A stretch of DNA of 42,393 nt from Clostridia bacterium (GCA_017625915.1 JAGAJV010000062.1:1-42393); one strand, 5' to 3'. Shown: positions 2,836-42,393, numbered from the stretch's first letter. Made by a program: numbers and translations. The notes: generated by a model from the sequence alone, not told the origin.

Positions 2836-4365
2836 TTATACCCTTTTCCAAGCACGAGGATTAAATAAAATCAGTACCGGCAAAATTTCAAGTCTGCCAA
2901 TCAACATAGTAAATGTCAAAATCAGCTTAGAAAATGCATTATAATCTGCATATGATGCGTAAGGACCGACTGCCTCAAAGCCAGGACCTATATTAGAAAT
3001 ACAAGCCAAAGAAGCAGAAAAGTTAGAAAAGAAGCCGTGCTCGTTTACGTCACTGATAGGGTCAAAGGAAAGAAGCAATGTTGCAGTTAAAAGTATAAAA
3101 AGGTAAAGAGTAATAAAGGAGAAAACATCGTTAGTTGTCTTTTCCTCTAGGCTTTTGCCTTCAAACTTAGCCTTAGGCACATATCTGGGATTAATCAGCT
3201 TTCTTACGTTAATAAATGTACCCTTTACAGCTATAACAATTCTTGATAGCTTAATACCGCCGGCTGTGGAGCCTGCCATAGCACCGGTAAACATAAGCAG
3301 AATAAGCACCATTTTAGAAACCATCGGCCATAAATTAAAGTCCGTTGTAGAATATCCCGTTGTTGTCATAATAGATGCAATTTGAAACAGTGTATGCCTA
3401 AATGCTTCTTCAATGGAATATCCTAAGGATTCTAGCCTTAAGCACAAATTTACAAAAACTAAAGCAACACTGGATACTATGATAATTAGATAGCATCTGA
3501 ATTCCTCGCTTCTAAACACCTCTTTAATTTTACCCAACAAAATTAAATAGTATAAACCAAAATTGCAACCAAAAATAAGTAAGAAAATAGAAATTACATA
3601 TTGTGCATACGGTGTCATAAATTCCATACTGTTAGGTATAAAGCCAAAGCCACCGGTGCCTGCCGAGCCAAAGCTTGTAAGCAAAGCGTGGAAAAGCTTA
3701 TCACCCTCATAAGAGCTATAACCGGCATCGGTAAGTGCATCATGGTTAATTAATGGACCGCATAATAGGAAAATAACCTCTAAAACTGTAAGACAAAGAT
3801 AAATAAGATACAAAATTCTTGCAGTTACCTTCATTTTAGAAGCAATTTTACCCACCTGAGGACCGGGAGATTCAGCACGAAGAAGATGCATTGAGGAGCC
3901 GTCATCACTTTCAGGAATGAAAATAAGCACGAATACAAGTATTCCCATGCCGCCAATCCAGTGTGAAAAGCTTCTCCAAAATAGAGAGGAATGTTCCAAA
4001 ACAGTAATATCCTTAAGAATACTTGCGCCGGTTGTTGTAAAGCCGGACATAATTTCAAAGCAAGCATCAATGTAGTTTGGAATATCTCCATTTATAACAA
4101 ACGGAATAGCACCGAAAACAGTCATTACTATCCAAACTAATGCAACAAGTGCGAAGCCCTCTTTTTGATAAAGAGATTTTCTCTTAGGCTTAGGCTTTAG
4201 CATTAAGCCGCCCAATACCGTTAAAGCAATAATAGGAATTATAAAGGCAAGCTTATATTTTAATTCTTCCCCGTAAATAAAGCTTACGATTAATGGAGCA
4301 AGCATCAAAGCTCCCTCAATAATCATAATCCTTCCTAAAATCCTACCGATTAGTTTAAAATTCAT
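2836..4365 (-). CDS. trkH: TrkH family potassium uptake protein
   Basis: 509 aa polytopic membrane protein with TrkH-type motifs (MSGFTTTGAS, GSAGTGGFG, MTTTGY, AGSTAGGIK); RBS aaggtga. Confidence 0.85.
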   Translation of the reverse strand: MNFKLIGRILGRIMIIEGALMLAPLIVSFIYGEELKYKLAFIIPIIALTVLGGLMLKPKPKRKSLYQKEGFALVALVWIVMTVFGAIPFVINGDIPNYIDACFEIMSGFTTTGASILKDITVLEHSSLFWRSFSHWIGGMGILVFVLIFIPESDDGSSMHLLRAESPGPQVGKIASKMKVTARILYLIYLCLTVLEVIFLLCGPLINHDALTDAGYSSYEGDKLFHALLTSFGSAGTGGFGFIPNSMEFMTPYAQYVISIFLLIFGCNFGLYYLILLGKIKEVFRSEEFRCYLIIIVSSVALVFVNLCLRLESLGYSIEEAFRHTLFQIASIMTTTGYSTTDFNLWPMVSKMVLILLMFTGAMAGSTAGGIKLSRIVIAVKGTFINVRKLINPRYVPKAKFEGKSLEEKTTNDVFSFITLYLFILLTATLLLSFDPISDVNEHGFFSNFSASLACISNIGPGFEAVGPYASYADYNAFSKLILTFTMLIGRLEILPVLILFNPRAWKRV

Positions 4366-23774: not shown

Positions 23775-23857
23775 GCGAGAGTGGCGGAATCGGCAGACGC
23801 GCACGTTTGAGGGGCGTGTGGGCAACCGTACGGGTTCAAGTCCCGTTTCTCGCACCA
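23775..23857 (+). tRNA. tRNA-Leu (anticodon GAG), class II with long variable arm, encoded CCA
   Basis: Acceptor GCGAGAG / TTCTCGC, anticodon stem CACGT / GCGTG with loop TTGAGGG, variable arm, T-arm ACGGG-TTCAAGT-CCCGT, 3' ACCA. Confidence 0.9.
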
Positions 23858-32905: not shown

Positions 32906-32958
32906 AAAGAAAGAAACAAATTATGACAAACAATTTTATGTGCTTTCAAAACTGAAGG
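32906..32958 (+). repeat. Upstream duplicate of the RBS and first codons of the deacetylase gene (contains a 10-codon mini-ORF at 32923-32955)
   Basis: 32906-32942 matches 33017-33053 with 1 mismatch in 37 nt, offset 111 nt; similarity continues in degenerate form to 32958 / 33070. The mini-ORF encodes MTNNFMCFQN then stop. Confidence 0.7.
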
Positions 32959-33010: not shown

Positions 33011-33033
33011 ATTGTCAAAGAAAGGAACAAATT

Positions 33034-33858
33034 ATGACAAACAATTTTATGTGTTATCCAAATTGGAAGGAAAAAGCATTAACCTTCAGCTACGATGACG
33101 GAAACATTAAGGATAGAGACCTAGTAGCGCTATTTAACAAATATAATGTAAAGGGCACATTTAACCTAAACAGTGCAATATTTTCAGAAAATGGAAAAGA
33201 AGATAACATTTCAAGAACCGAGGTTAAGGACTTATATAAGGGACACGAGGTTGCTGTTCATACAGTTACACACCCTCGCCTGGAGCTTTTACCAAGCAAT
33301 CTTATTACCTGGGAAATAACTGAGGATAAAGCAAGCCTTGAAGCACTATCCGACACAATTGTGCAAGGTATGGCGTACCCATTCGGCACATATAGCGACG
33401 AGGTTGTTGAAATCTGTGAAAAAGCAGGAATTAAATATTCAAGAACAGTTCATTCAACACATAATTTTGATGTAACCTACGACTGGCTAAGAATGCCTGC
33501 AACCTGCCACCACGCAGACGATAAGCTTTTTGCGCTTGCAGAAAAATTTGTAGCAGGCTCACCAAGCCTAGAGCGCTTCAAATATACAGGCTGGCTATTC
33601 TATGTATGGGGACACTCATACGAATTCAGAACAGAAGAGGACTGGCTCCGTATGGAGGGCTTTGTTTCAATGGTAGCAAACCGTGAGGATACATGGTATG
33701 CAACCAATATTGAAATTTATGAATATGTACAGGCATTCCGTAGCCTTGTTTACTCACAAGACGCATCTAAGGTATATAACCCATCTGCACTCCCTGTTTA
33801 TATGCTTCATAACTCCAAAAAATATGTTATCAAACCAGGCGAAACAGTAACATTTTAA
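33034..33858 (+). CDS. Polysaccharide deacetylase (CE4) family protein
   Basis: LTFSYDDG (Asp-Asp metal/catalytic motif), HTVTHP, AYPFG motifs. Confidence 0.8.
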   Translation: MTNNFMCYPNWKEKALTFSYDDGNIKDRDLVALFNKYNVKGTFNLNSAIFSENGKEDNISRTEVKDLYKGHEVAVHTVTHPRLELLPSNLITWEITEDKASLEALSDTIVQGMAYPFGTYSDEVVEICEKAGIKYSRTVHSTHNFDVTYDWLRMPATCHHADDKLFALAEKFVAGSPSLERFKYTGWLFYVWGHSYEFRTEEDWLRMEGFVSMVANREDTWYATNIEIYEYVQAFRSLVYSQDASKVYNPSALPVYMLHNSKKYVIKPGETVTF

Positions 33859-35670: not shown

Positions 35671-38400
<2,730 letters not shown>

Positions 38401-38410
38401 AATACAACAA

Positions 38411-38448
38411 AAAGGATAGAGCAAATAGCCCTATCCTTTCGTTTTTTA
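38411..38448 (+). terminator. Intrinsic terminator
   Basis: Stem aaaggatag-gc / gc-ctatccttt, followed by cgtttttt. Confidence 0.6.
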
Positions 38449-38480
38449 TTATCGTAAATTAATAAGTGATCCCTTGTATT

Positions 38481-38775
38481 AAACAAAAATGACTAAGTCG
38501 GCAACACGGTCCCGTGTGTCGGGCTTAGTCATAGGTGGTCGAGATGACAGGAAGCATCGCAATAAATTGCTCGTAACACTTCGCGCGCAAATCGTGAGCG
38601 AGCTCCCATTTGCTTCGCTCGCTAGGCGCACCTGATTCAACTTGCGTTGAAAGCAGATGCGAACAGTCAACACAAACAAAAAAATCCTAAACCGAACATA
38701 AAGTTCAATTTAGGATTTTTATGGTCGAAGTGGCGATACCCGACTCGAACCTGCCAGAAAAAGTGTTTTGAAGCC
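38481..38775 (-). ncRNA. Unclassified structured-RNA-like element, copy A (core 38535-38727)
   Basis: 193-nt core about 93% identical to 41733-41927. On the minus strand: a 12-bp hairpin with U7, then a 4-way junction (P1 GCAUC/GAUGC, P2 UUCAAC-GCAA-GUUGAA, P3 GUGCGC/GCGCGC enclosing AGCGAGC/GCUCGCU, P4 short variable hairpin), then its own terminator (38491-38530 plus U-run). Overlapping ORF 38479..38679 judged non-coding. Confidence 0.6.
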
Positions 38776-38869
38776 TTTTGACATAAGGATTTAGGGCATA
38801 TTTATACTGGCAAAATAAAAATAGTTTTTGTAAAAAAGCAGATATTTGAAAGTATTTTTACGCAAAATA

Positions 38870-38898
38870 TTGATTTTTAAATAAAAATGTGCTAAAAT
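38870..38898 (+). promoter_or_regulatory. Candidate promoter for a short plus-strand transcript
   Basis: TTGATT (38870-38875), 17-nt spacer, TAAAAT (38893-38898); a plus-oriented terminator lies ~70 nt downstream. Confidence 0.4.
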
Positions 38899-38932
38899 AA
38901 AATCACGACTAAGTGGTGTGCTTTAGCATATC
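38891..38932. repeat. 42-nt direct repeat DR1 (partner at 40420-40462)
   Basis: gctaaaataaaatca-cgactaagtggtgtgctttagcatatc versus gctaaaacatatcatacgactaagtagtgtgctttagcatatc; contains inverted TGCTAAA...TTTAGCA. Confidence 0.7.
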
Positions 38933-38936
38933 ACAC

Positions 38937-38975
38937 AAGCATCAAAACTATTGGCGTAGTTTTGATGCTTTTTTA
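38937..38975 (+). terminator. Plus-strand-oriented intrinsic terminator
   Basis: 14-bp stem aagcatcaaaacta / tagttttgatgctt with loop ttggcg, followed by tttttt on the plus strand only. Confidence 0.6.
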
Positions 38976-38994
38976 TTTTTAGAAATCAAACCTT

Positions 38995-39333
38995 TCATTT
39001 TTCTATAAAGTTTACATTATTTGCACATATTTGTATATTATGATAAGAGCCAGTGACATCACTTTCAACACAAATATTAATTGAATTGTCTAATAATTCA
39101 ACCTTTACTATTTCATCGCTATTGATTTTGTAATTGTCATATGTGCAATTAGAACAATTAGAAAACTCAATTAGAACAATTCCGGTTTCTTTTTCACCAT
39201 CTTCAAAGGATGATTGTTGCCAATAGCAGAAATCAATTTCGAGACAAACGATATTGGCTGCTTTATCATAAGAAATGTCTTCAAGCAAACTACCTATTAG
39301 ATAGACTTTATTTATAAATTCTTTTATTGTCAT
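38995..39333 (-). CDS. Small acidic cytoplasmic protein, candidate immunity/antitoxin partner of the upstream gene
   Basis: Start moved to ATG 39333 (MTIKEFINK...), preceded by aaaggagg, 13 nt after the upstream stop; 112 aa, no signal peptide, no recognised family. Confidence 0.5.
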   Translation of the reverse strand: MTIKEFINKVYLIGSLLEDISYDKAANIVCLEIDFCYWQQSSFEDGEKETGIVLIEFSNCSNCTYDNYKINSDEIVKVELLDNSINICVESDVTGSYHNIQICANNVNFIEK

Positions 39334-39346
39334 TGTATACCTCCTT

Positions 39347-39682
39347 TTATGGTATAATGTGAGAAGCTTTTGAGTTTTTTGGCACGGGATTACCATTTTT
39401 ATCTAAATAATAATCGTGTTTTCCAGTGGAGTTGGGATTTAAAACATGGTAGTGGTCTTTTCCACCGTAGCCTCCTTGAGAGGCATCTCCTTTATCATAC
39501 CTTATGCTTAATCCATCTTTGTTTGTGTACATTTTTGAAGTAGTATTTTGCGACATACTAACAGGTGTAGTTTCTTTCCAGCCTTTTTCCAAAAGTTTAT
39601 TGGGATTTTTAGGCAAACTTTTTATAGTGGAGCGAATAGCACCACGAGAACCCGAATATCCTCCTGACATTCCTGAACCCAT
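39347..39682 (-). CDS. Small (111 aa) Gly/Ser-rich-N-terminus protein resembling a stand-alone polymorphic-toxin C-terminal domain
   Basis: MGSGMSGGYSGSRGA... then GW...LSIRYDKGD...GGKDHYHVLNPN...YYLDKNGNPVPKNSKASHI. The layout recalls small nuclease/RNase toxin CT domains (weak, by eye). ATG overlaps the upstream stop (TAATG), with an RBS aggagg inside the upstream gene. Confidence 0.5.
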   Translation of the reverse strand: MGSGMSGGYSGSRGAIRSTIKSLPKNPNKLLEKGWKETTPVSMSQNTTSKMYTNKDGLSIRYDKGDASQGGYGGKDHYHVLNPNSTGKHDYYLDKNGNPVPKNSKASHIIP

Positions 39683-40353
39683 TATAAATTCCTCCTTCGT
39701 TTAGTACTTATCCAGTCCGGATAGTTTACAAAGTCGGTTTTGTGCTTGAATTCATCAAATACGGAATTGGGCATAGCTCCGTAAACAAGTACAACTGTCG
39801 GTTCCAACTCATCAAGCATGGCTTTTAGACCTTCTCTAAAGTAGTGCTTGTTTTCTTGTCCTCTAATACAGCCATATGTGCTAATTGACACAATACTACG
39901 TTTGGGAACGCCTAAAAACGCAAACTTTTCAGGCAATTCTGTGGTGGTATAGCTTCGTTCATCTCCCCAACGAATATTTGGAATAACATATAACCCTTGC
40001 GCTTGCAAAAAGCTTCCAACTGCTCGGTTCATATATGTGTTTGCAATTTGCAAGCACAGAGGCATATCTCTATATAGAGAACAGTCTGGAGATATAATTG
40101 CAGAGAACTTCGAGAGCTCTGATAAGAAATTTTTTGTGCTTGTTAAAACATCAGAAAATTTTATATCATGCTCGTAAAAGTGAACGGCTTCAGTTTTGTC
40201 TTTGCTTCGTTTGATTTGAGTAAAAGGAATAACGGATTTTGGAATTATAATTTTATCGGGTTTTTTAATAACTGGTATTTCAAAAATACCATCAAAAAAA
40301 GCACTAGAAACGAGTTCGGAATTGAACCCATCATCTACTAAGTTTTTATTCAT
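39682..40353 (-). CDS. DUF4417-like protein, function unknown
   Basis: 223 aa; pattern HFYEHDIKF...ISPDCSLYRDMP...NRAVGSFLQAQGLYVIPNIRWGDERS...VSISTYG recalled as DUF4417-like, from memory and not verified. Confidence 0.55.
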   Translation of the reverse strand: MNKNLVDDGFNSELVSSAFFDGIFEIPVIKKPDKIIIPKSVIPFTQIKRSKDKTEAVHFYEHDIKFSDVLTSTKNFLSELSKFSAIISPDCSLYRDMPLCLQIANTYMNRAVGSFLQAQGLYVIPNIRWGDERSYTTTELPEKFAFLGVPKRSIVSISTYGCIRGQENKHYFREGLKAMLDELEPTVVLVYGAMPNSVFDEFKHKTDFVNYPDWISTKRRRNL

Positions 40354-40419
40354 GATATGTAACCTTTCTCCTCTAATAAAGAGGGATTTTTATTTTTAAA
40401 ATAGTTTAAAAAAGGGTAG

Positions 40420-40462
40420 GCTAAAACATATCATACGACTAAGTAGTGTGCTTTAGCATATC
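40420..40462. repeat. 43-nt direct repeat DR2 (partner at 38891-38932)
   Basis: About 85% identical to DR1, located 67 nt upstream of the DUF4417-like start codon. Confidence 0.7.
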
Positions 40463-40483
40463 CTTGCAATATTGGTTTTTGTT

Positions 40484-40521
40484 TTGTCAAGAGTAGTTGG
40501 CGCTAATCTTGACATTGTCAA
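40484..40521. promoter_or_regulatory. Cluster of TTGTCAAG / CTTGACA / TGTCAA half-sites including the perfect palindrome TTGACAtTGTCAA (40509-40521); candidate repressor operator
   Basis: Inverted repeats in the 200-nt gap between the ImmA gene and the DUF4417-like gene. Confidence 0.4.
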
Positions 40522-40556
40522 CAATCATAGTACATCACTCCTTTTAAAGTTTGTTT

Positions 40557-41081
40557 TTAATATTTTAATCTTTTTTTAGCAGCGGATTCAGAAACCCCAT
40601 ATGTGTTCATTAGTTCATTGATAGTCATGTTTTGAGTTGATTCATATGGCATCATAACTTCACCAGCTAGAGCCATAACTATCCATTCTATCCTTTTGTA
40701 TAAAGGAACATCTTGAGTTAGTTGACGAGAGAAAACAGGTTTAAAACCAAGCTTGTCAGCGAATGCATGCATGATTTCGTGCATAATATGCATGCGATGT
40801 CCACCTACCTTTTTTTCAAACGCTCCATTATAAACTGATTCCTTTATTTGAATTAGGTAGCCACTATCGTCAACAGAACATTGTGCGGGAACGTTTTTAG
40901 GTAAAACATTATTGTAAACAACATCATATCGCACATCTTCAAATCCTTCAAAATCAGGGAGCTTATCCAATAACTTTACAGGATCGACAGGTTCGTTTTC
41001 AGATAGTCCACAGATTGAACGGAACAATTTAGAATAAAGTCGAAGCTCATAACGGTTGGTTGCTTTAGTTTCGTAATCCAT
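40557..41081 (-). CDS. ImmA/IrrE family zinc metallopeptidase
   Basis: HEXXH motif (MHIMHEIMHAF), 174 aa, translationally coupled (TAATG) to the upstream HTH gene, the classic ImmR-ImmA arrangement. Confidence 0.8.
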   Translation of the reverse strand: MDYETKATNRYELRLYSKLFRSICGLSENEPVDPVKLLDKLPDFEGFEDVRYDVVYNNVLPKNVPAQCSVDDSGYLIQIKESVYNGAFEKKVGGHRMHIMHEIMHAFADKLGFKPVFSRQLTQDVPLYKRIEWIVMALAGEVMMPYESTQNMTINELMNTYGVSESAAKKRLKY

Positions 41082-41443
41082 TAATTTTCCTCCTTGTTAA
41101 GAAGTTTAATAATGGCAGCCGCTGTATCATCATCGAGCTTGTCAAAGGAACGCTGAAATTGCACAGCGAGATTTCTCTGAGAATTGCTAGCAGAAATAAG
41201 ATTAACTTTAACTTGGGTTTTTGAATATTCAACAGCTTCAATTAGTTCAGCTTGCTCTTGCTCATTTAATTGGTAGTGTGTGATTAGGATAGGAATCCAT
41301 TCATCGGGAACATTTCTTTTTCCGTTTTCGACGGTGGAAACAAAGGGAATCTTAACATTGAACAGTTTTGCAGTATCTCCCATTACCTCATGATGTTTAA
41401 CTCGTTGTATTCGCATAAATTCTCCAAATTTAGTATAGCTCAT
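41081..41443 (-). CDS. XRE-family helix-turn-helix transcriptional regulator
   Basis: HTH_3-like N-terminus (FGEFMRIQRVKHH..MGDTAKLFNVKIPFVSTVENGKRNVP). The second ATG (41443) has better spacing to aaaggag than the ORF-track start 41449. Confidence 0.75.
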   Translation of the reverse strand: MSYTKFGEFMRIQRVKHHEVMGDTAKLFNVKIPFVSTVENGKRNVPDEWIPILITHYQLNEQEQAELIEAVEYSKTQVKVNLISASNSQRNLAVQFQRSFDKLDDDTAAAIIKLLNKEEN

Positions 41444-41470
41444 ATTCATTCTCCTTTCCTGTTTGATTCA

Positions 41471-41499
41471 AGTATATCATAAGTTTACCTAAAAGTCAA
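41471..41499 (-). promoter_or_regulatory. Sigma-A-type promoter of the XRE-ImmA operon
   Basis: On the minus strand, TTGACT, 17-nt spacer, tgaTATACT (extended -10). Confidence 0.55.
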
Positions 41500-41690
41500 T
41501 AATTAATTTAACCTTTTTTTGATTAATTTTCGCAAAAGGATAAAAAAAAGACGAGTGAGCAACTCATCTTTAAGTAAATTGAGGTTCGAATCCTGCGTGA
41601 TAGACTGTGAGTTTCGAACTTTTTAGAAAAATGTGCAAATAAATTTGTGAATGTTTACCAAAATAAATGTTCATAAAATGTACAAATTAA

Positions 41691-41975
41691 ACAAAAAAGC
41701 AACTGAAATTTCAAAAGAAATTCCAGTTGCAAGTGGTCGAGATGACAGGAAGCATCGCGTACTACGTTGCTCGTAACACTTCGCGCGCAAATCGTGAGCA
41801 AGCCCACATTTGCTTCGCTTGCTAGGCGCACCTGATTCAACTTGCGTTGAAAGCAGATGCGAACAGTCAACACAAACAAAAAAATCCTAAACCGAACATA
41901 AAGTTCAATTTAGGATTTTTATGGTCGCAATGAGCCACCCTCAGTTGAACACCCTATTAAAAAGTGCAACAAACC
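41691..41975 (-). ncRNA. Unclassified structured-RNA-like element, copy B (core 41733-41927)
   Basis: Same architecture as copy A. P3b is AGCAAGC/GCUUGCU here versus AGCGAGC/GCUCGCU in copy A (a compensatory double change). It has a different P4 tip and a different terminator hairpin (41699-41730), followed by the same uuuuuguuuaau tail. Overlapping ORF 41655..41879 judged non-coding. Confidence 0.6.
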
Positions 41976-42300
41976 CATATAGCAAAAGGAGTTTTGTGAC
42001 TTTTTTACGAGGCGGAATTTTTTAGAAAAATGTAAATCGTATATCAAAAAGACCTCAAAAATATCACTTTTTGAAATTTGAGATTTTTATTTTAAGGGTG
42101 CAAAGACACAGATTTCAAGAGTGCAAAAAAGTAAAATTAAAGTTGCACTCTTTTGATTGAAAATCAGCAGATGTGCTGAAAATTTGGCACTACTGCTTTG
42201 AGAGGAATAAATTGCTCAAATGAGATTGTATAAGAAAAGATTTTATGATATAATAAAATATCAGTTAATCAATTAAAGAAGAAAGGTATGTATCAGTGAT

Positions 42301-42393
42301 ATGAAAAATTGCGACATCCATATTCGTGACCCATTTGTTATATTTGAAAACGGACGATACTATATGTATGGAACACGGGGCAAAAATTATGGC
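42301..42393 (+). CDS. Glycoside hydrolase family 43-like protein, N-terminal 31 codons (runs off window)
   Basis: MKNCDIHIRDPFVIFENGRYYMYGTRGKNYG: the RDPF...G.YY.YGT motif is typical of GH43 N-termini. The RBS is weak. Confidence 0.55.
   Translation, partial: MKNCDIHIRDPFVIFENGRYYMYGTRGKNYG

Follow-up and report, generated by a model that had tools for sequence, protein, structure and literature searches.

What is the RNA-like element that occurs twice, a few kilobases (kb) apart, in a contig of a Clostridia bacterium, and why does each copy end like a proline transfer RNA (tRNA-Pro)? The stretch analysed here (GCA_017625915.1, JAGAJV010000062.1:1-42393) is 42,393 nucleotides (nt) long and is called the window throughout. 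Its two copies of the element, copy A (38536-38677) and copy B (41734-41877), both lie on the minus strand with a start-to-start spacing of 3200 nt and have a five-gene cassette between them. Judged from sequence, they belong to an as yet undescribed family of RNA elements, each some 140 nt long, folded and pseudoknotted, which we name U units, and to none of the families tested. The repeat is far beyond chance, with 94% identity over 175 nt and about 30 homologues elsewhere; a 26-nt block without differences adds to it. A covariance model built from 22 units finds only two matches in the window, copy A (38536-38681, 149.9 bits, E = 2.8e-30) and copy B (41734-41881, 146.3 bits, E = 1.7e-29), and RNAfold shows both copy regions to be unusually stable (z-scores -5.0 and -7.3). 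On balance, we are inclined to the view that U units form a new family of structured non-coding RNAs that is derived from tRNA-Pro, is linked to tRNA-Pro, and serves also as a recombination junction.

An earlier note on this DNA had taken the differences between the copies as the product of selection on RNA structure, and much of its description stands. The 107-nt identity is exact (38621-38727 equals 41821-41927) and extends on neither side. In the stem that the note called P3b, here P3, AGCGAGC/GCUCGCU of copy A becomes AGCAAGC/GCUUGCU in copy B, a single G-C to A-U change with both strands altered, and the loop differs at two positions (GAAGCAAAUGGGA versus GAAGCAAAUGUGG) rather than at the three that had been counted. 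The tip of the P4 helix is replaced as described (GCAAUUUAUUGC in A, GCAACGUAGUACGC in B, with lengths that differ by 2 nt); the suggestion that either version forms a small hairpin is borne out for the A tip and for most alleles of the family, but the B tip is not predicted to fold alone. The swap of the 3’ hairpin is complete (38481-38532 versus 41689-41730), with UCGACCAC before it and UUUUUGUUUAAU after it retained. What had been taken for a 5’ hairpin of the RNA is instead a terminator-like hairpin after a separate tRNA-like element ending in ...CGACCA, and lies outside the conserved body.

Do the differences between the copies record stepwise compensatory mutation? Among 22 homologues, the P3 position that changed in copy B is G-C in 11, G-U in nine, A-U in one (copy B only) and a non-pair in one. 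The differences between A and B look like swaps of pre-existing alleles and not like such mutation. The orthologue of copy A in the same species (locus L006; loci outside the window are cited by number) has a different whole P3 and pseudoknot allele. Whole modules are shuffled in this family, and identical alleles recur in different species.

Where else does the element occur? A pattern was scanned against 185,579 genomes, each standing for one species. Of the 22 loci that it picked up, 21 are true, and all 21 come from uncultured gut metagenome-assembled genomes of Eubacteriales, Clostridia or Oscillospiraceae. Contigs with identical neighbour proteins yielded further, more divergent copies; the covariance model gives 37 matches at E < 1e-6 overall, and the distinct relatives number about 30. 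A scan of Joint Genome Institute metagenomes added one real member of the family (L055) among 16 matches, the other 15 being due to chance. Neighbouring MatE genes compared between four host species share 82-93% protein identity and 75-87% DNA identity; the family therefore does not reach beyond about one clade of genus rank. The units nonetheless keep 41 invariant columns despite MatE DNA identity of only 75-87% between species. No family member was found by blastn against phages and plasmids, and of two pattern scans of viral contigs one was without a match and the other gave two chance matches inside coding sequence. Rfam 15 returned no relevant match for the window at the gathering cut-off, for 38000-42393 at E up to 10, or for 20 loci at the gathering cut-off; the best matches were chance terminator or microRNA-like ones far below their own cut-offs. 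Literature searches found no description of this element.

What fold do the units share? The 5’ stretch is variable; in a few units it consists of a complete acceptor 5’ strand without mismatch, (U)GAGAUG, with GAUUCGAC after it. The order after it is a P2 hairpin, (C/U)AGG plus U(U/G)CG, an insertion, a T-stem 3’ strand, an acceptor 3’ strand and ACCA. The (C/U)AGG plus U(U/G)CG segment equals, in tRNA-Pro, the 5’ strand of the T-stem and the beginning of the T-loop, and the insertion, 85-190 nt long, stands at the T-loop position. It contains a P3 stem of 7 base pairs (bp), a 6-bp pseudoknot that joins the P3 loop to the segment after P3 and that the earlier note had missed, the invariant GAAGUGUUACGAGCAA, and the P4 helix with its tip hairpin. 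On the minus strand of the window these parts are the P2 hairpin (A, 38628-38660; B, 41828-41860), the P3 stem (A, 38617-38623/38597-38603; B, 41817-41823/41797-41803), the pseudoknot (A, 38608-38613/38587-38592; B, 41808-41813/41787-41792), the invariant motif (A, 38567-38582; B, 41767-41782), the P4 tip (A, 38559-38570; B, 41757-41770), the 3’ strand of P4a (A, 38551-38558; B, 41749-41756) and the tRNA-Pro tail (A, 38536-38552; B, 41734-41750, UCCUGUCAUCUCGACCA).

The fold was evaluated on an alignment of 22 distinct homologues, many of them recently derived from one another by copying. All 22 have P2 as a hairpin of 6-7 bp; its stem comes in at least six versions, and each of these pairs perfectly. 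P3 pairs in 90.6% of cells. In the 4-bp T-stem-like helix, which the two separated strands of the T-stem form, 89.8% of cells are paired and three of the four pairs are altered on both sides (CAGG/CCUG, UAGG/CCUA, GGAG/CUCC and UGGG/CCCA), and in the pseudoknot this is true of all six pairs (GCAAAU/AUUUGC, GUCGAU/AUCGAC, AGCC/GGCU and AGUC/GACU). The covariation score is 0.230; shuffled alignments give 0.143, with none of 500 as high as the real one, and sliding the partners gives at most 0.123. Covariation that preserves pairs across homologues is thus present, in a set with many recent copies. Mismatches in P3, the pseudoknot and P4a are biased toward G-U (56 cells) over A-C (3 cells); this strand, whether as RNA or single-stranded DNA, is therefore the one on which the pairing is read. 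The claim of selection on RNA structure thus finds support in the larger alignment, where pairing is preserved.

Could the same stretches encode small proteins? Open reading frames (ORFs) that start with TTG run over both copies, 38479-38679 for 66 amino acids (aa) and 41655-41879 for 74 aa, and their first ~37 residues are common save for three substitutions. Past a 2-nt indel nothing is shared between the products, and each ORF runs on through its own unrelated terminator hairpin. Stop codons occur in all three sense frames in 13 of the 22 homologues, and the differences between alleles keep pairing, not codons. With no reading frame conserved, the argument against these ORFs as genes holds on the larger alignment, and we give the small proteins virtually no credence.

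How, then, is the element related to tRNA-Pro? The final 12-19 nt of every unit are those of a genuine tRNA-Pro gene, ...CCUGUCAUCUCGACCA. The tRNA-Pro(UGG) gene found on related contigs has the 3’ end ...GCAGGUUCGAAUCCUGUCAUCUCGACCA, which equals the last 17 nt of both window copies; in the species of the window this gene lies ~3.6 kb past the window end, as read from L006. ARAGORN finds a tRNA-Pro gene (UGG or CGG) in 14 of the 21 scan loci, always on the strand of the units, and in 13 of these 14 a U-type unit lies within ~330 nt downstream of it; the exception, L038, has module b only (modules are described below). Other tRNA genes and clusters in these loci are without units. Three tRNA-Pro 3’ ends are seen: CCUGUCAUCUCGACCA for UGG, CUCCGCACUUCGACCA for CGG and, from a divergent CGG gene in L026, UCUCACUCCGACCA. 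The tails of U units match one or other of the first two, and the L026 type is copied only in the tails of the S elements described below. The tail also tracks the T-stem variant of its own genome in eight of the eight genomes where both are visible, five with CCUGU and three (L023, L032 and L033) with CCUAU. In the latter three, the T-stem of tRNA-Pro(UGG) is GUAGG/CCUAU instead of GCAGG/CCUGU, and the units there end in CCUAUCAUCUCGACCA. The tail includes G72 and A73, which we take to be acceptor-end identity elements of tRNA-Pro.

The units are not themselves tRNAs. ARAGORN and Rfam RF00005 find only a tRNA-Leu (23775-23857) in the window, real tRNA-Pro genes at other loci score 60-72 bits where units do not register, and the P2 loops are tetraloops, hence without an anticodon loop. 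Nor is a transfer-messenger RNA (tmRNA) called by ARAGORN in the window and 23 loci or by Rfam; the units have a pseudoknot but lack a T-loop and an ORF.

Three loci form a subfamily II (L025:3314-3454, L028:6143-6284 and L031:3906-4046) and two a subfamily III (L032:4865-4994 and L033:5685-5811), the latter with one module in common with long U variants. Both subfamilies keep tRNA-Pro-like ends and have completely different internal insertions. A truncated unit, consisting of the 3’ domain and tail only, is seen at L030:1-214, where four GCATATCATCA and three GATGATATAC(A) inverted repeats stand before it and resemble iterons or arm sites.

What surrounds a unit? Upstream of a unit there is usually a tRNA-Pro gene or a pseudo-tRNA of tRNA size, then a terminator hairpin, and another terminator comes after the unit. 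The pseudo-tRNAs, which we call S elements, directly precede both window copies and U units at several other loci. They have a hairpin like an anticodon arm (CCUU, a 7-nt loop, AAGG) and, as a T-loop-like motif, GUUCAA or GGUUCGAGU; the sequence upstream of them, GATTTTACATTTTTCTCAAAATTTTCGA, is conserved, and their ...GACCA tails are exchangeable. Fifteen homologues in other loci share CCUU-7-nt loop-AAGG and GGUGUUCAACUGGGGUUGG; besides the window, the loci with S elements are L006, L010, L020, L022, L025, L027, L032, L033, L036 and L038. Upstream of copy B the S element (41922-42000, minus strand, ~79 nt) is tRNA-like and ends in ...CAUUGCGACCA, and its 5’ GUCACAA pairs at six of seven positions with its own 3’ UUGCGAC; ARAGORN does not call it as a tRNA. 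The S’ element upstream of copy A (38722-38795, minus strand) is a tRNA-like remnant with a T-loop-like GGCAGGUUCGAGU and a tail, CACUUCGACCA, of the tRNA-Pro(CGG) type. The native UUGCGACCA tail, where an S element has it, pairs with the 5’ end of that element (7/7 in L010, 6/7 in the window); tRNA-Pro-type tails do not.

Between the S element and the unit lies module d, a terminator-like hairpin with a U run (before copy B, 41878-41920, minus strand, an 18-pair stem followed by TTGTTTGTGT); the hairpin before copy A (38678-38720, minus strand) is identical to it, and module d also follows the real tRNA-Pro gene in L033. After ACCA comes one of several interchangeable hairpins, and these together make up modules a-e. 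Copy A is followed by module a, the commonest after U units (38481-38532, minus strand; AUGACUAAG...CUUAGUCAU, then UUUUUGUUU), and copy B by module e, an intrinsic terminator (41689-41730, minus strand; a 14-pair stem, then TTTTTTGTTT). Terminator-like sites number 12, compared with 2.4 expected, and seven of the eight longest-stem sites are on the minus strand. It is the flanking modules only that qualify as intrinsic terminators, the scan having called 41878-41920, 41689-41730, 38678-38720 and 38410-38440. The last of these, a second terminator beyond module a on the minus strand, closes a conserved extension of ~90 nt (window 38410-38480, minus strand) that is also present in L010:2600-2720 and may be another small RNA; a weak MicC-like Rfam match at 38410-38440 reflects terminator similarity only.

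How would a unit work if it is a tRNA-Pro-derived RNA? Its RNA would be made by read-through from the upstream tRNA or S promoter, and the tRNA-like ACCA end would let the tRNA 3’-end machinery define and protect its 3’ end. It would then act in trans in something tied to tRNA-Pro. Since several near-identical copies are packed into a few kb, the units would also recombine, both among themselves and with tRNA-Pro genes, and such recombination would shuffle modules and tails and make the units the borders of variable cassettes, for example the 3.2-kb segment with helix-turn-helix (HTH), ImmA and DUF4417 genes between copies A and B.

Several observations weigh against this reading. The preceding terminator U run leaves no room for a promoter before the unit, and expression therefore needs read-through; the unit RNA is a candidate transcript, predicted from the arrangement of the sequence. 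The distal acceptor 5’ partner for the tail is complete (7/7) in only two of 28 units and reaches 5/7 in the window copies, and we rejected a distal acceptor 5’ strand as a general feature. The identity of the tail to the tRNA is thus better kept than its pairing, which points to exchange at the DNA level, and in S elements as well tails are swapped even where pairing breaks. The CAGG segment has alternative partners, the 3’ CCUG or an upstream CCUG (helix P2a, 7 bp in the window copies), and the T-stem-like helix may therefore not form in the window copies. Finally, the shuffle statistics overstate independence because many of the sequences were recently copied. There is also an internal partner for the tail, since the invariant CGAAGUG pairs 7/7 with CACUUCG tails and 6/7 with CAUCUCG tails.

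If tails are exchanged as DNA, are the units simply attachment (att) sites? One hypothesis is that they are the conserved ends of small elements, integrative or mobilisable, whose target is the T-loop-to-3’-end portion of tRNA-Pro genes; each insertion would regenerate the tRNA 3’ end, and repeated ones would build tandem arrays around cargo. The fold would then be borne by the element and would not be that of a host RNA gene. The units have the direct repeat typical of such sites, 12-19 nt identical to tRNA-Pro from T-loop/T-stem to CCA, with the local variant followed, which is the classic block of tRNA-targeting integrases. As in genomic islands made by these integrases, or by integrase-less cis-mobilisable accretion, the T-loop-to-CCA segment is repeated downstream of an intact gene, follows the local tRNA sequence and brackets variable cargo. 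Junctions fall exactly after ACCA, where the interchangeable modules a-e begin, [terminator + unit] repeats stand in tandem in L037 and L006, and tails are exchanged regardless of RNA pairing. The gene content between units differs among contigs of the same species. In L006, two more units and GFO_IDH and GH43 genes lie between tRNA-Pro and copy B, and in L010 one unit and a second, inverted HTH-M78-DUF4417 cassette with diverged paralogues. The two loci differ by a swap of ~3.3 kb beside tRNA-Pro (L010:2799-5557 versus L006:4442-7824) with its left breakpoint at most ~35 nt after the tRNA. A 5’-truncated tRNA-Pro(CGG) in L035 and a large serine recombinase in L022 can be counted on the same side. 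The former lies upstream of the U unit at 3143-3291 (minus strand), begins in the anticodon stem and is not called by ARAGORN; the truncation hints that this tRNA gene was rearranged or, long ago, hit by an integration.

The enzymes near the units and the details of the junctions argue against the att hypothesis. Neighbouring genes were surveyed as 97 non-overlapping ORFs of at least 150 aa in loci that reach about 4 kb either side. Among the first 25 of 96 Pfam families the recurrent ones include GH43, MatE, HAD and TMEM164 and no recombinase. Targeted Pfam scans of the window cassette and of individually scanned ORFs of the 21 loci gave no tyrosine integrase, transposase or reverse transcriptase, and no integrase lies beside a junction within the loci examined. 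The sole recombinase near units, in one of the 21 loci, is of the large serine type (Resolvase, Recombinase and Zn_ribbon_recom; L022:4828-6345, minus strand), which does not use long identity cores; it is located 1.9 kb upstream of an S’-U pair and has DUF5677 and LexA-like neighbours. The repeat common to neighbouring tails is 6-19 nt long, a variable length that fits neither a fixed core nor a target-site duplication, and the L006/L010 swap has its right breakpoint away from any tail. Protein-binding arm sites would leave the covarying pseudoknot and the G-U bias unexplained; known att repeats are not preceded by a covarying pseudoknotted body of ~125 nt as the units’ are, and tandems without cargo are likewise unaccounted for. 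The order MatE, tRNA-Pro, unit, GH43 recurs at MatE DNA identities of 75-87%, suggesting vertical inheritance. We regard the att array as the main rival explanation, possible but unlikely.

In a related hypothesis, units might be integron-like cassette recombination sites anchored at tRNA-Pro genes, with the enzyme encoded elsewhere; the folded RNA, or a folded single DNA strand, would together with the tail guide or template the insertion, excision and exchange of cassettes exactly at ...CGACCA. We consider this rather improbable.

Might the tail instead be a guide? In orphan guide-RNA-like transposon modules, of the TnpB omega-RNA, IS200/IS605 miniature-element or bridge-RNA type, the scaffold would stem from the end of a transposon, and as guide it would use the flanking tRNA-Pro sequence that makes up the 3’ tail. 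The layout is that of an omega-RNA, with a pseudoknotted scaffold of ~125 nt followed by a 12-19-nt 3’ segment that equals a DNA target; TnpB and IscB omega-RNAs carry such a guide-length segment after (TnpB) or before (IscB) their pseudoknotted scaffold. The insertion falls between UUCG and (A)AU of a T-loop-like site, the copy number exceeds one and the alleles are mosaic. However, the units have no nuclease gene, no transposon ends and no sequence or Rfam similarity to omega-RNAs: TnpB, TnpA and IS110 are absent from the recurrent families listed for the 97 ORFs and from the individually scanned ORFs, and no match of omega-RNA type appears in Rfam even at E up to 10. The left (P3) and right (P4b) hairpins are unrelated, unlike the ends of IS200/IS605, so there is no match between left and right ends. 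Completely different insertions occupy the same T-loop position in subfamilies II and III, the host “pseudo-tRNA” is never seen empty, and cutting the cell’s own tRNA-Pro genes would be harmful. A guide-RNA origin is in our judgment very unlikely.

What of the genes that the two copies enclose? The cassette (38995-41449, minus strand) encodes five proteins: one of 122 aa that is possibly of the helix-turn-helix type, its match falling short of the Pfam cutoff; an ImmA/IrrE M78 peptidase of 174 aa; a nuclease-like DUF4417 protein of 223 aa; and two, of 111 and 133 aa, that match nothing. PADLOC reports nothing on the cassette, and PHROGs gives only metallo-protease and DUF4417 nuclease-like matches. 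Copy B lies upstream of these genes on the same strand with a terminator at its end, and could be thought to be a cis-regulatory leader, an attenuator or riboswitch, that controls the HTH-ImmA-DUF4417 operon through this terminator; the GUCAU of the tail could even pair with AUGAC of module a as an antiterminator. However, two terminators, module e and a second one from the terminator scan (41547-41571), and then a separate promoter-like site (TTGACT-17-TG-TATACT, 41499->41471) stand between copy B and the cassette’s first gene. Downstream of copy A there is no gene on its strand, in L035 and L039 the genes that follow units are convergent, and neighbour genes vary from locus to locus. A leader role for copy B is highly improbable.

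Four further candidates were tried and rejected. A Bacteroidetes small RNA or promoter was ruled out, as the neighbour genes (Com_YlbF, MutS/L) and the homologous genomes are Clostridia. An integron attC site fails because GCCUAAC-like motifs are present without a GTTRRRY partner and the gene orientation is not cassette-like. The primer-binding site of a retroelement primed by tRNA-Pro, read on the plus strand, was dismissed since Pfam scans of neighbour ORFs found no reverse transcriptase, the length of identity varies (12-19 nt) and the terminators are read on the minus strand. A link to a T-box or prolyl-tRNA synthetase does not hold either, as the T-box of L028 precedes a leuA-type gene, not proS.

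Two other repeats were seen in the window. A 28-nt repeat, 96% identical (38905-38932 and 40435-40462; minus strand GATATGCTAAAGCACAC(C/T)ACTTAGTCGT), has one copy past the last cassette gene and the other between the M78 peptidase and DUF4417 genes. A 49-nt direct repeat, 90% identical at 111-nt spacing (32906-32954 and 33017-33065), spans an ATG upstream of a polysaccharide deacetylase gene.

Which known system does the tRNA-Pro-derived RNA resemble? By analogy, a U unit may work most like a tRNA-derived RNA such as tmRNA (ssrA). Both have tRNA-like ends around a large pseudoknotted insertion, and the acceptor 5’ strand plus GAUUCGAC of several units recalls the GGAUUCGAC motif of tmRNA. The differences are that the units lack a T-arm, a tag reading frame and the alanine identity pair, their acceptor stem is mostly degenerate, their insertion replaces the T-loop and not the anticodon arm, their copy number exceeds one and their tail is specific to tRNA-Pro. 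YrlA Y-RNA-like mimics and viral tRNA-like structures are likewise non-tRNA RNAs that copy part of a tRNA and are handled by tRNA enzymes. These mimics, however, imitate the elbow and T-arm and are linked with Ro60 or viral 3’ ends, whereas the units copy faithfully only the acceptor/T-stem 3’ strand and do so at chromosomal tRNA-Pro loci. The BOX, BIME/REP and RUP repeats share with the units an intergenic location and modular, interchangeable hairpin boxes, but are scattered through the whole genome, with tens to hundreds of copies; U units are found at one or two loci per genome, are always tied to tRNA-Pro, and have a pseudoknot and invariant single-stranded motifs.

What would the family mean for these bacteria? 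The units, as structured RNA modules that border swappable cassettes beside a tRNA gene, would be a compact natural case that bears on how tRNA-linked genomic islands form without a visible integrase. Were they only a decaying att array, they would be a warning that allele shuffling can mimic covariation-like patterns; were the integron-like reading true, they would point to RNA- or structure-directed building of variable islands behind a tRNA gene. To our knowledge, very few tRNA-derived non-coding RNAs are known in bacteria, and the examples we considered are tmRNA and the Y-RNA-like RNAs. As a new tRNA-Pro-derived RNA, the U unit would add to them a proline-specific RNA with a pseudoknotted insertion in place of the T-loop. 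Three types of tRNA-Pro 3’ end are copied and no other tRNA’s, which points to a role in the identity, processing or gene maintenance of proline tRNA.

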